Shown here in pieces: positions 45,887-47,810 of a stretch of DNA of 64,000 bases. The notes beneath the pieces were generated by a model, which was not told the origin of the DNA, ran no database searches, and saw only the letters and a program-made list of their open reading frames with translations. Source of the stretch: an uncultured Rickettsiales bacterium (lineage in GTDB: Bacteria; Pseudomonadota; Alphaproteobacteria; Rickettsiales; RGZB01). The stretch covers positions 79,530-143,529 of the forward strand of contig CAYXPR010000003.1 of the NCBI GenBank assembly GCA_964467255.1, written 5' to 3'. Positions within the stretch are counted from its first letter, which is position 1, and every line of letters starts with the position of its first letter. Both the position numbers and the translations under genes were made by a program.

Positions 45887-45978
45887 GGAGCGGTGGCCGA
45901 GTGGCCGAAGGCGGCGGTTTGCTAAACCGTTATACGGGTTAAACCGTATCGGAGGTTCGAATCCTCTCCGCTCCGCCA
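45887..45978 (+). tRNA. tRNA-Ser (anticodon GCU)
   Basis: The acceptor stem is GGAGCGG/CCGCTCC, followed by discriminator G and encoded CCA. The anticodon loop is TTGCTAA, the variable arm is long (TATACGGGTTAAACCGTATC) and the T-loop is GGTTCGAATCC. Confidence 0.9.
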
Positions 45979-46138
45979 TTAAGTCTCAGGGTTCCCACCC
46001 TTAGAGAATTAATGGCATTAAAAGCGCGCATTCCGGGCCACTCACGGGATACCAGCACTTCCCCACACTACTGAGAATACCCAAAATAGACCCCCAAAAG
46101 CCCACTTCTCTCAGTTTGCAAAAAACCAGTGTGGCGAA

Positions 46139-46603
46139 TCAAGATTTGAAGAAATCTACTGTTTTTATGTACGAAACACCAAAAACCTTAGCTACGCTTG
46201 GAATTTTCAACCTTTGTGGTTTCTGAGACTCATCTGTTATGATGGTAGCCCCATTATTTTTTGCATGAGCAATTAACCAAGGATCAGCCCAATTCGAGTC
46301 ATTTTCATTATCAAACCAATTCTGATATTGGGCTGCAATTTGCTTTACAATTTCTTGGTCAGCAACACAATATGACCTAGTGCTACTAATAAAACAACTG
46401 AGGCCCTCTAATAGCCTAATAAGTTCAGAATCTTCCTCTTTCTTCTCTACTAATCTAGCCTGCAGTTCACATTTAACTTCTTGGTGTATTAAGAAACCAC
46501 CTAAAGCGGCATATTCCTTGAATTTATTACGACAATGTTCGATTGGATGATAATCCGAGAAGTACTTAATCAAAGAGTTAGTGTCCCAAACATATTTTTG
46601 CAT
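46139..46603 (-). CDS. DUF4411-like PIN-superfamily nuclease (candidate toxin/effector)
   Basis: The start is trimmed to MQKYVWDTNSLIKYF. The N-terminal WDTN, ADPWLIAHAKNNGATIITDE and KIPSVAKVFGV match my recollection of DUF4411. The ATG lies 1 nt after the upstream stop (TAGCATG). Confidence 0.55.
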   Translation of the reverse strand: MQKYVWDTNSLIKYFSDYHPIEHCRNKFKEYAALGGFLIHQEVKCELQARLVEKKEEDSELIRLLEGLSCFISSTRSYCVADQEIVKQIAAQYQNWFDNENDSNWADPWLIAHAKNNGATIITDESQKPQRLKIPSVAKVFGVSYIKTVDFFKS

Positions 46604-46604
46604 G

Positions 46605-47741
46605 CTAACTCTTAACTTTAGATGCAATTCTGGCCATAATATCTAGGCAATACTTATCTTTTCTGCCTAAGTAATAATGTAAATCACTCTTGGAAATAAT
46701 ATTGCTACGGTAACCTGCATAAACCGCTTTACAATATTTTTGGCCCAACTGGTTAATGGTTGTATATAAGTGGGTATCTTTTCCGCCGCCCGAAGGTTTT
46801 TTTTCGGTCTTTCTTTTTTCATCCAATTCAATTTCAAGGATATTGTAGGCTTCTTGGCTAAGAATCTTGTTGTGTAACAATCTGAGCAATACAACATCTC
46901 TACTAATTTTGTATTTCTCAGAAATGTACTCGATCTCTTTCAGGCTTACGCTTTTATCTATAAGAGATGTTATGAGGGGATCATTACTCAAGTAAGAATC
47001 CGGCAATAAAACCTTTCCAGTAATGCTATTACACAATGCCTCAATCACAGAATGTTCGTATTCTGTTGTATCCGCGTTGTGGACCATACTGCTTTTAAGA
47101 AGTATATGAGCCAGTTCATGAATAATAGAAAATATCTGACCTGCAAGAACATCATTGGATGCTATTCCAATGATTGGCAAAATATCATTGTAGAGCGCCA
47201 ATCCTCGAAGACTTTTGTCTTTCGCGGGCATTTTGAACACTAAAATGTTTAGATCTTCTATTTTAGAAACCAAATATTCATAGAGACCTCTTTTGTCTAG
47301 TCTTTCCAGCCGCTCTTGGGAGGGGTAGATAGTGGAGGAAATGTAATCAATAATTTTTCTTTTTTCGGTTTCTTTAAAGGTAAGGAATTTAGGCATGATA
47401 TCTATATCTGTCGCGCTTGCTAAATAGAGATAACTTTGCCTTCTTTTTTGTAATTCTTCTGAGAGAACAATTACCTTGTAGTTTATATCGATTTTTTCAG
47501 ATCTAAATGTTCTAGTATCAAGCTTATCAATTCCTCCCACTGATTCAGGTTTTATTCTTGGACTTGATAAAAAGAAAGCAATTGGCCTTTTCAATTCTTT
47601 GGACAAGCCCTTTATTGAGCTTAACGTAGGCCTATCTGCAGCCCAAGACTCAATATCAGGGAACTTTCTTGATATGCCAGGATATGCCCTTAGCATCCAA
47701 TTTATGCAGTCATCATTTACGTGAATAATTATTTTTGTCAT
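46605..47741 (-). CDS. ImmA/IrrE-family zinc metallopeptidase (COG2856-like)
   Basis: 378 aa with HEXXH in FSIIHELAHILLKS. It has an N-terminal roughly 60-aa HTH-like segment and a C-terminal helical region. Confidence 0.65.
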   Translation of the reverse strand: MTKIIIHVNDDCINWMLRAYPGISRKFPDIESWAADRPTLSSIKGLSKELKRPIAFFLSSPRIKPESVGGIDKLDTRTFRSEKIDINYKVIVLSEELQKRRQSYLYLASATDIDIMPKFLTFKETEKRKIIDYISSTIYPSQERLERLDKRGLYEYLVSKIEDLNILVFKMPAKDKSLRGLALYNDILPIIGIASNDVLAGQIFSIIHELAHILLKSSMVHNADTTEYEHSVIEALCNSITGKVLLPDSYLSNDPLITSLIDKSVSLKEIEYISEKYKISRDVVLLRLLHNKILSQEAYNILEIELDEKRKTEKKPSGGGKDTHLYTTINQLGQKYCKAVYAGYRSNIISKSDLHYYLGRKDKYCLDIMARIASKVKS

Positions 47742-47810
47742 GCCGCCTCATATGGCCTTTCTAGCATTTAGATATCTAGCCGCACCAGAGAAATTTGCTC
47801 AACGGGATAT

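Follow-up and report, generated by a model that had tools for sequence, protein, structure and literature searches.

A divergent VapBC52-family peptidase antitoxin and PIN toxin gene pair beside a tRNA-Ser gene in an uncultured Rickettsiales bacterium

Introduction

VapBC52 of M. tuberculosis is a toxin-antitoxin system formed by the toxin Rv2514c and the antitoxin Rv2515c, for which crystal structures are available (PDB: 9VZY, 9VZZ; Singh et al., NAR 2026, PMC13273310). The complex contains antitoxin and toxin in a 1:2 ratio, and single-stranded DNA (ssDNA) triggers self-cleavage of the VapB52 antitoxin (PMC13273310). The VapC52 toxin cleaves tRNAs and conferred resistance to mycobacteriophage D29; phenotypes outside phage infection, in copper stress and virulence, have also been described (PMC13273310). 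Systems of this composition had been foreseen by computation, first by Makarova et al. 2009 (PMC2701414) and later by Matelska et al. 2017, who described DUF4411.1 with HTH-DUF955 (COG2856) as "three-component" toxin-antitoxin systems (PMC5499597). A second described group is RosmerTA, which combines the zinc-peptidase antitoxin RmrA with the toxin RmrT (Millman et al. 2022; Ernits et al. 2023, PMC10440598). The RosmerTA toxins tested to date differ in kind, an example being the membrane-depolarising RmrT of phage Kita (PMC10440598).

Here we describe a related gene pair found in a 64,000-nucleotide stretch of DNA, referred to as the window. A sequence-only reading had presented the pair as a coupled M78 peptidase and DUF4411 PIN protein with a likely toxin-antitoxin or abortive-infection function, and this core reading is supported, both proteins being full-length homologues of the solved complex. 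It had also held that such pairings were predicted bioinformatically, which is correct for 2009 (PMC2701414) and 2017 (PMC5499597), and that they were experimentally unexplored. The latter view is outdated because VapBC52 shares the architecture and has already been solved and tested, with crystal structures, self-cleavage, tRNA cleavage and a phage phenotype to its name (PMC13273310). Given that the family was predicted in 2009 and 2017 and its prototype solved and tested in 2026, the pair is a divergent member of the VapBC52 family and not a novel kind of system. It probably represents a VapBC52-type type II toxin-antitoxin/abortive-infection cassette, acquired as cargo of a ~6.8-kb integrative tRNA-Ser island.

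Gene layout and island context

The two open reading frames lie on the minus strand at the coordinates originally assigned to them. The features of the locus, in window coordinates, are as follows.

Antitoxin gene, 46605-47741, minus strand: 378 aa, start ATG and stop TAG, a Peptidase_M78 (ImmA/IrrE-type) zinc peptidase.
Toxin gene, 46139-46603, minus strand: 154 aa from ATG, a predicted DUF4411 PIN-domain nuclease.
Gene junction TAG-c-ATG, 46603-46607, minus strand: a single base separates the antitoxin stop from the toxin start, read from the sequence.
Spacer from the integrase stop to the antitoxin start, 47742-47810, minus strand: 69 nt, read from the sequence.
GATATC-centred repeats, 47767-47815, no strand assigned: a palindrome and the arms of an inverted repeat.
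tRNA-Ser(GCT), 45887-45978, plus strand: called by ARAGORN and Rfam (tRNA), the left boundary of the module-bearing island.
Large serine recombinase, 47811-49352, minus strand: Pfam Resolvase and Recombinase, phrog_95 integrase (4.3e-96).
Standalone Xre protein, 52461-52694, strand opposite to the peptidase: 77 aa, HTH_3.

The TAGCATG junction with its 1-nt gap is present in the sequence, and this single-base separation of antitoxin and toxin implies translational coupling. The same gap occurs in three members of the antitoxin's own clade (L003, L004 and L005), and the remaining intact loci have gaps of -14 to +20 nt. In the program-made list of open reading frames the toxin reaches back to a TTG at 46627 (162 aa); since close homologues all begin with MQKY or MEKF, the 154-aa ATG start is the correct one. 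A GAGG Shine-Dalgarno sequence stands 5 nt ahead of the antitoxin ATG, inside the 69-nt spacer.

The toxin stop is separated from the tRNA-Ser(GCT) by 161 nt. Synteny with a related genome stops at 45982, 4 nt past the tRNA, which supports the earlier placement of the pair as the first cargo beside this tRNA. The GC content of the cassette is 31-40%, with flanks of at least 50%, and is unlike that of the integrase and the remaining island. The cassette is foreign, low-GC, horizontally acquired cargo of a small mobile island. To locate an attachment site we searched the right end of the island for a direct repeat of the 3′ end of the tRNA; repeat search, local alignment and blastn-short gave nothing longer than 10-13 nt, so that gene content and GC alone define the right border.

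The two proteins and their proposed mechanism

Both family assignments made at the outset, DUF4411 and M78 peptidase, were upheld by Pfam above the curated cut-offs. The toxin matches PF14367 (DUF4411) at 5.6e-21 with 75.4 bits (cut-off 23.5), PF01850 (PIN) at 2.1e-05, also above its curated cut-off, and phrog_11126 at 6.5e-14. The acidic motifs that had been recognised by eye are indeed present, with D7 in WDTN, D107 in ADPW and E125 in ITDE; together with E46 these residues form an acidic tetrad that is invariant in a 40-sequence homologue alignment. We modelled each protein as a single chain with AlphaFold2. The toxin model (pLDDT 92.4, pTM 0.88) has its best Foldseek matches among VapC toxins (5ecw, 3zvk and 9h6a; TM-score ~0.6-0.7), and from model and matches the DUF4411 protein is confidently predicted to adopt a VapC-like PIN fold. 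Pairwise identity to the prototype toxin is 26% over 87 aa, and the toxin family profile matches 9vzy_D over its full length at 1.6e-41. No PADLOC family, RmrT included, was matched by the toxin at E<=0.1.

The antitoxin matches PF06114 (Peptidase_M78) at 6.6e-11 with 42.5 bits (cut-off 22), and the predicted HEXXH motif was found in IIHELAHIL, which holds H208, E209 and H212. These residues and E234 make up the zinc site and are invariant in the antitoxin alignment. The AlphaFold2 model (pLDDT 82.6) contains three domains, which together with the linker are arranged as follows.

N-terminal domain, about residues 1-60: a degenerate Xre helix-turn-helix.
Linker, residues 63-84: invariant D75-x-R77-T78, predicted to be disordered.
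Peptidase middle domain, residues 88-312: H208, E209, H212 and E234, with H221 at the "switch" position.
C-terminal domain, residues 323-377: a four-helix bundle.

Foldseek places PprI/IrrE and PrpR at the top of the matches to this model. Twelve PADLOC RmrA models match the antitoxin, the best at 2.9e-14 over residues 36-316, and phrog_2439 matches it at 2e-29. BLASTP against VapB52 gives 27% identity over 352 aa (6e-23), and the antitoxin family profile matches 9vzy_A at 3e-70 across residues 2-388, as well as IrrE and CapP. Since 9VZY is not among the Foldseek matches (PDB to April 2026), the link to this structure rests on sequence and profile searches. Membership of the NCBIfam spr1629 antitoxin family was considered and rejected, the score being 25.5 bits against a cut-off of 335.

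These data allow us to propose how the cassette might work. Homology along the full length of the solved M. tuberculosis proteins suggests that a single antitoxin of 378 aa would hold a dimer of the PIN toxin, with the N-terminal helical domain on the outside of the dimer and the C-terminal four-helix domain blocking the toxin active site, as in VapBC52. A trigger, most likely ssDNA from phage replication or DNA damage, would bind the peptidase middle domain and displace the switch loop carrying H221, a position held by Cys in the prototype. The zinc peptidase activated in this way would cut its own conserved linker at D75-T-R77-T78, and on loss of the N-terminal domain the complex would be expected to disassemble. 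Judging by the behaviour of the family, the freed PIN RNase would then cleave tRNAs, and the ensuing stop in translation would abort phage growth, arrest the cell or penalise loss of the island. For the present pair we infer the trigger, the RNA target and the role, whether defence or island maintenance.

Conservation of the pair and its likely role

In all 13 genome loci, which come from bacteria and archaea, the toxin gene is immediately preceded on its own strand by the peptidase gene, and the same arrangement is seen in six further loci from metagenomes and plasmids. The two genes thus co-occur well beyond this genome, in this order in 19 of the 19 complete loci examined; the scan of loci was based on an alignment of 7 closer sequences. 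Most of these 19 loci are without an integrase or a nearby Xre gene. Relatives often adjoin type I, MmeI-like or Eco57I-like restriction-modification genes, and the neighbours of others include further toxin-antitoxin pairs and a TIR-domain gene.

Stabilising islands is a common role of toxin-antitoxin modules, and the same machine could in principle serve purely for addiction, stabilising the island or a former prophage by post-segregational killing with no anti-phage function. The position of the cassette inside a mobile island beside the attachment tRNA would suit this role, as would the copper-stress and virulence phenotypes of the prototype. Against this, chromosomal relatives repeatedly neighbour restriction-modification and other defence genes, protection against phages is known both for VapC52 and for RosmerTA-type systems with a peptidase antitoxin, and an ssDNA-sensing peptidase fits a signal of infection or damage better than it fits simple antitoxin decay. 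We therefore regard addiction as the sole function as rather unlikely, if worth serious consideration.

A divergent clade of antitoxins

Within the VapBC52 family, the present antitoxin belongs to a clade of 9 clusters at 90% identity, which is sharply set apart from relatives that bear a helix-turn-helix, identity dropping from at least 51% to at most 29%. The N-terminus has no Pfam helix-turn-helix match even at E<=10. PF01381 is missing from all 9 clade clusters, whereas most relatives at 29% identity or below carry it. In the alignment, ~10 residues corresponding to helix 2 and two more are deleted from the Xre helix-turn-helix, and the rest of the N-terminal domain is conserved (W15, P38 and R52-P-I-A-F56). 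The helix-turn-helix-like N-terminus noted in the sequence-only reading is accordingly homologous to the Xre helix-turn-helix of the relatives, but it is degenerate, has lost helix 2 and finds no match in Pfam.

The switch position, 9 residues after the second His of HEXXH, is held by His in this protein (His221) and in all 8 clade sequences. VapB52 has Cys here, as do 10 of 13 other DUF4411-linked peptidases, the remaining 3 having Ser; a Cys switch is therefore not family-defining, as several members lack it. The linker residue R77 is invariant and is preceded by T or A in the clade versus F, Y or L elsewhere. F79-R80 is also present, in this sequence alone, and BLASTP pairs it with the FR of the prototype, a linker motif that is the putative site of self-cleavage. 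Across 7 aligned clade sequences (57-72% identity) no variation is seen in the N-terminal domain, the linker motif or H221-N222, which indicates that they are under selection.

It is conceivable that the clade represents a re-wired VapBC52-type system, in which the antitoxin N-terminal domain may no longer bind DNA, H221 may replace Cys as a zinc-capping switch, and the self-cleavage site may have shifted from D-F-R to D-T-R-T. We consider this combination doubtful. Were it true, the cassette would answer a different trigger or respond with different kinetics, and its transcription would be under outside control, for example through integrase read-through or, alternatively, through the standalone Xre of the island acting on the GATATC repeats.

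We also considered a split three-component arrangement, with a standalone helix-turn-helix gene regularly beside clade pairs, and rejected it on two loci: L003 has no such gene beside the pair, and the one present at L005 is apparently part of another small pair.

The upstream region and the serine recombinase

The palindrome reported upstream of the pair, TAGATATCTA, is real, although it lies at 47769-47778, one base away from the position first given. A second copy, GATATCTAAA, lies at 47806-47815, where it overlaps the stop codon of the integrase gene; with the arm TTTAGATATC (47767-47776) it makes up a 10-nt inverted repeat. The 10-nt palindrome is unremarkable by itself: shuffling the 89-nt stretch yields one 14% of the time, and the window holds 55 palindromes of this kind; an inverted repeat of at least 10 nt is unusual (0.5% of shuffles). 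Comparison of the 150-nt regions preceding the antitoxin gene at 11 other loci gave no shared palindrome, and the region in the nearest relative, L003, contains no palindrome at all. Autoregulation through the palindrome, as had been suggested, lacks comparative support and is unproven, because the GATATC repeats are not conserved in relatives. The helix-turn-helix that would bind them is degenerate in the clade. A promoter scan of the 69-nt spacer gave no consensus sigma-70 promoter, the RNA fold of the spacer is no better than that of shuffles (z = -0.58), and Rfam reported the tRNA only.

The antitoxin gene lies directly downstream of the serine recombinase gene on the same strand, and co-transcription of the two is possible.

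This arrangement also recalls an ImmA/ImmR-type switch, in which the peptidase, as anti-repressor of the integrative element, would cleave the standalone Xre repressor upon DNA damage and so bring about excision by the serine recombinase, with the PIN protein as an accessory. The peptidase gene follows the integrase by 69 nt on the same strand, the opposite end of the island encodes a bona fide HTH_3 protein, the helix-turn-helix of the peptidase itself is degenerate, and cleavage of ImmR by ImmA in ICEBs1 is the founding example of the peptidase family. We nevertheless judge such a switch very improbable. At 378 aa the protein has the three-domain plan of VapB52 and is far from the ~170 aa of ImmA; it is tied to DUF4411 in 19/19 loci, mostly without an integrase or a nearby Xre gene; the GC content of the cassette sets it apart from the integrase and the rest of the island; and the sole Xre gene is 4.7 kb away on the opposite strand.

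That the cassette is an inactive, decaying remnant, in which the absence of the Cys switch, the changed FR and the divergence of the N-terminal domain reflect lost regulation or function, can be dismissed as extremely improbable: the regulatory residues of the prototype do differ here and frameshifts or truncations affect some copies in metagenome-assembled genomes, but both open reading frames are full length with every catalytic residue intact, and the divergent features are invariant in the 7 clade sequences (57-72% identity), which points to purifying selection and not to decay.

Comparison with known systems

With the canonical VapBC systems, such as Shigella/F-plasmid VapBC and Rickettsia felis VapBC2, the VapBC52-type cassette described here shares the predicted toxin fold and the acidic active site. 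The VapB proteins of those systems are, however, DNA-binding proteins of the AbrB, RHH or Phd type with a mass of 8-13 kDa (about 70-100 aa) that form 2:2 or 4:4 complexes, whereas the present antitoxin is a 43-kDa peptidase.

The M78 fold and zinc site are held in common with CapP/CapH, IrrE(PprI)/DdrO and ImmA/ImmR, and in structure the middle domain comes closest to PprI with ssDNA (8sln) and IrrE (3dte). In those systems the peptidase cuts a separate repressor and controls transcription, whereas here, as in VapB52, substrate and protease are apparently fused in a single antitoxin that sequesters a nuclease. ImmA, moreover, is a short standalone peptidase adjoining an Xre repressor, in contrast to the 378-aa protein with its PIN neighbour.

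The antitoxin matches RmrA models, and RosmerTA likewise joins a peptidase antitoxin to swappable toxins, PIN domains included, in phage defence. The working logic is the same, but the toxin has no RmrT match and the pair is not classed as RosmerTA in PADLOC-DB 2.0.0. The systems predicted by Makarova et al. 2009 and Matelska et al. 2017 agree exactly in gene order and domain content, with DUF4411 downstream of a fused HTH-M78 protein; those papers offer predictions only, and the HTH component is unrecognisable in the present clade.

The closest likeness is to VapBC52. Both systems place a DUF4411 PIN toxin with an extra C-terminal helix downstream of a large antitoxin (about 360-415 aa), which begins with a helical domain and continues through a linker and an M78 HEXXH middle domain, itself containing an HTH-like subdomain, to a C-terminal domain of four helices. 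They differ in that pairwise identity is just ~26-27%, the present antitoxin is without helix 2 of the Xre helix-turn-helix and has no helix-turn-helix signature, His221 stands in place of the Cys229 switch, the linker reads D-T-R instead of D-F-R throughout the clade, and the genes reside on a mobile island of a Gram-negative-type genome and not on a mycobacterial chromosome. Annotation as a VapBC52-like or peptidase-antitoxin PIN module would be preferable to the labels now in use, "XRE family regulator + DUF4411", which are uninformative.

The pair opens no new question; it is a divergent, naturally mobile example in a family whose mechanism is known for one member. Set against VapBC52, the clade retains as constant elements the PIN tetrad, HEXXH with its additional Glu, the Arg of the linker, the helical plug at the C-terminus and the close coupling of the genes. 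What can be replaced is the helix-turn-helix, the Cys of the switch and, in the FR motif, the aromatic residue. This comparison of constant with replaceable elements supplies concrete mutants with which to probe the "switch loop" model.

A coupled peptidase-PIN gene pair

The two-gene coupled pair proposed by the sequence-only reading is present, with both ORFs and a junction (TAGcATG) that leaves one base between the stop codon of the first gene and the start codon of the second:

46605-47741, minus strand: antitoxin ORF, 378 aa, ATG start and TAG stop
46139-46603, minus strand: toxin ORF, 154 aa, ATG start, downstream of the antitoxin gene

A mechanical ORF list extends the toxin back to a TTG at 46627; we place the start at the ATG because every close homologue begins MQKY/MEKF. 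The family assignments were borne out by Pfam matches above the curated cut-offs, Peptidase_M78 (6.6e-11) for the antitoxin and both DUF4411 (5.6e-21) and PIN (2.1e-05) for the toxin.

The PIN-like acidic motifs ascribed to the second protein hold up in an alignment of 40 toxin homologues, where D7, E46, D107 and E125 are invariant and fall in the WDTN, HQEV-x-x-E, ADPW and ITDE motifs. A confident AlphaFold2 model of the toxin (pLDDT 92.4, pTM 0.88) finds its best PDB matches in the VapC toxins of Shigella, the F plasmid, Rickettsia felis and M. tuberculosis (TM-scores 0.6-0.7). Exhaustive searching of 1.84 billion representatives returned only 2 homologues with E<1e-10 and 116 with E<1e-3; judged by its sequence, the toxin is a divergent DUF4411 member, and it matches no PADLOC model.

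H208, E209, H212 and E234 are invariant in the antitoxin alignment, and PADLOC RmrA models match this protein (best 2.9e-14). Its structural model (pLDDT 82.6) has four parts:

residues 1-60: small N-terminal domain of five helices
residues 63-84: disordered linker
residues 88-312: peptidase domain, with a low-confidence loop at 221-230
residues 323-377: C-terminal domain of four helices

Structurally, the antitoxin model most resembles Deinococcus PprI/IrrE, including the ssDNA complex 8sln, and M. tuberculosis PrpR.

Conservation of the pair in other genomes

A pattern search of one genome per species, biased to toxins with an ADPW[LI]IA motif, found 13 loci encoding toxin relatives. Their sources are bacterial (Rickettsiaceae, Nitrospirota, Atribacteria, Terriglobia, Verrucomicrobiota, CPR bacteria and WOR-3) and, for 3 of the 13, archaeal (Bathyarchaeia, Altarchaeum and Thermoplasmata). 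Co-occurrence outside the window genome, on which the earlier proposal turned, is seen in all 13 scanned loci, where the peptidase gene lies immediately upstream on the same strand (four copies frameshifted or truncated), and also in metagenomic and plasmid loci: the gene order recurs in metagenomic homologues at 75% and 54% identity, with two helix-turn-helix-bearing antitoxin homologues (25-28% identity) and on Enterobacter and Leptospira plasmids. The frameshift-split or truncated pairs of loci L008, L011, L012 and L016, from metagenome-assembled genomes, are pseudogenes or assembly errors.

The gap between the genes is 1 nt in the clade of nine antitoxin clusters that includes the window copy, and -14 to +20 nt in other intact loci. 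Flanking genes vary by locus and include an IS1595 transposase, type I R-M (hsdMSR), MmeI-like and Eco57I-like enzymes, other toxin-antitoxin pairs and a TIR-domain gene. The pair is constant and its flanks differ, and therefore it moves as a unit, often in defence neighbourhoods, although this last link is anecdotal and not an enrichment test.

On the conjugative IncF plasmid p11778_1 of Enterobacter kobei (NZ_CP083829.1 118180-124398), an 'XRE family transcriptional regulator' of 380 aa and a DUF4411 protein are flanked by a TIR-domain gene on one side and, on the other, by a tyrosine recombinase adjoining mcr-10.2; thus the toxin-antitoxin family travels with a colistin-resistance gene. A Rickettsiaceae metagenome-assembled genome (L005) bears the closest named relative (50% identity) and, just downstream of the pair (L005 4675-5278), a second small overlapping pair, a 111-aa ORF and a 91-aa HTH_3 protein, that is probably another toxin-antitoxin module.

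Homology to VapBC52

PDB sequence searches matched the pair to both chains of 9VZY, a 393-aa 'HTH cro/C1-type domain-containing protein' and a 'DUF4411 family protein'. Family profiles align with these chains over their full length (antitoxin 3e-70, toxin 1.6e-41); compared pairwise, the antitoxins share 27% identity over 352 aa and the toxins 26% over 87 aa. The system in entries 9VZY and 9VZZ is M. tuberculosis VapBC52 (Rv2514c/Rv2515c; NAR June 2026, PMC13273310), a 1:2 antitoxin:toxin complex whose toxin cleaves tRNAs of host and phage and, when overexpressed, gives resistance to phage D29 (PMC13273310). With VapBC52 solved and tested, the pairing can no longer be called experimentally unexplored, as it had been. 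It was predicted earlier by Makarova et al. 2009, who named Rv2515c (PMC2701414), and specifically for DUF4411 by Matelska et al. 2017 (PMC5499597), and the RosmerTA peptidase-antitoxin systems are validated phage defences (PMC10440598).

The profile matches to both 9VZY chains and the conserved pairing support the toxin-antitoxin or abortive-infection reading, and we consider it probable that the pair is a VapBC52-type cassette with a self-cleaving antitoxin and a tRNA-cleaving toxin. In such a mechanism the antitoxin would sequester a PIN dimer until a DNA-damage or infection signal activated its own peptidase and the linker was cut; the PIN RNase so freed would cleave tRNAs and halt translation.

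The carrier island

The cassette is cargo of foreign origin, carried by a small island beside a tRNA gene. GC content is 31-40% exactly over 46140-47800, at least 50% in both adjoining flanks and about 55% in the host genome.

45887-45978, plus strand: tRNA-Ser(GCT), 161 nt past the toxin stop
45979-52800: integrative island, very small at about 6.8 kb
51880-52377, minus strand: 165-aa ORF with a HEHLVPRK stretch, beyond the methyltransferase gene
52461-52694, plus strand: standalone Xre-family HTH_3 protein, 77 aa (1.7e-13), at the island's right end, on the strand opposite the cassette

Upstream of the cassette, on the same strand, Pfam identifies a large serine recombinase, DUF2924, DUF5681 and a ParB-N6/N4 methyltransferase; the 165-aa ORF has no Pfam or PHROGs match. 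Structural and transfer genes are absent from the island, which may be what is left of a prophage or else a minimal mobile islet. An Rfam match to RF04351 (plastid psbI-rps4 3'UTR RNA; 45922-45975, minus strand) was rejected as an artefact of the tRNA sequence, being antisense to tRNA-Ser and below the gathering score (46.8 against 68 bits).

Colinearity of the window with a related genome, GCA_044356525.1 (~86% identical in nucleotides), ends at 45982, 4 nt beyond the 3' end of tRNA-Ser; from there on that genome holds different genes, and the neighbourhood is therefore a variable region. Past its tRNA-Ser, that genome (JBIKVZ010000001.1, locus L023 1-8884) carries a 97-aa ORF, a glutamine-synthetase-like gene, tRNA-Met and tRNA-Gln, followed by a further island that encodes two tyrosine integrases, AlpA and a type III R-M methyltransferase. 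Logan contigs on the lepB side stop at 45915/45916 (runs SRR12816580, SRR12816583 and SRR12808459) and those on the island side at 45949/45952 (SRR12816583 and SRR12816581), placing an assembly-graph branch within the tRNA (45915-45952). This is compatible with populations with and without the island but is also a common artefact, and is weak evidence because contigs often break at tRNAs. A search for a repeat of the tRNA end at the island's right side found no detectable att repeat; gene content would put the right border at about 52700-52800, ordinary metabolic genes such as ackA and pta starting again at 52815.

That the same machine acts as an island-addiction module only, a rival on role alone, strikes us as somewhat unlikely. 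The Xre protein is the only canonical helix-turn-helix in the island and a candidate island repressor, through which, despite its distance, the antitoxin could act as an ImmA/ImmR-like excision switch. We regard such a switch as improbable: coupling to DUF4411 is invariant, also in integrase-free contexts, and the antitoxin is VapB52-like in size.

Upstream repeats

Two elements lie upstream of the cassette:

47769-47778: palindrome TAGATATCTA, upstream of the antitoxin gene
47806-47815: GATATCTAAA, overlapping the integrase stop codon

Together they form an inverted repeat of 10 perfectly matched nucleotides whose arms are 29 nt apart. Shuffling the 89-nt stretch yields a 10-nt palindrome in 14% of cases and a 10-nt inverted repeat in only 0.5%. 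The repeats from which autoregulation had been proposed are real, but the GATATC-type element is absent from the nearest relatives and 11 other loci share no upstream motif. The RNA fold of the region is no better than that of shuffles, and no consensus promoter was found in the 69-nt spacer. Autoregulation through the repeats is possible but finds no support, and the antitoxin helix-turn-helix, which would have to bind them, is degenerate.

Divergence from VapBC52

Single-sequence and profile searches agree on only nine antitoxin clusters at 51% identity or more, and the next relatives, at 29% or less, score far lower (141 against 335 bits). None of the nine has a Pfam HTH match, and HTH_3 is found in most distant relatives; taken by itself, the N-terminal domain gives no match to an HTH model even at E<=10. 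In the alignments, ~10 residues spanning helix 2 of the Xre helix-turn-helix are deleted and 2 more are lost in the W-E-x-G-E turn. The remainder of the domain is invariant across the clade and therefore maintained, plausibly for toxin binding by analogy with VapB52, whose N-terminal domain is required for binding and whose four-helix C-terminal domain occludes the PIN active site (PMC13273310). A decaying remnant is very improbable, as the catalytic residues are intact and the divergent features are conserved clade-wide.

The VapB52 zinc site carries a 'cysteine switch' cap, C229, and ssDNA activates the antitoxin to cut off its own N-terminal domain close to a conserved FR motif (PMC13273310). 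The cysteine lies nine residues past the second HEXXH histidine, whereas all eight clade sequences have histidine there (M-[VI]-H-N); other DUF4411-linked peptidases have cysteine (10/13, G-[IL]-C) or serine (3/13). In the linker, the clade has D-[TA]-R-T where relatives have D-[FYL]-R, with the arginine invariant. Such differences in helix-turn-helix, switch and linker may affect triggering. The window pair adds a divergent new member to a kind of system that is already known and whose mechanism has now been characterised.
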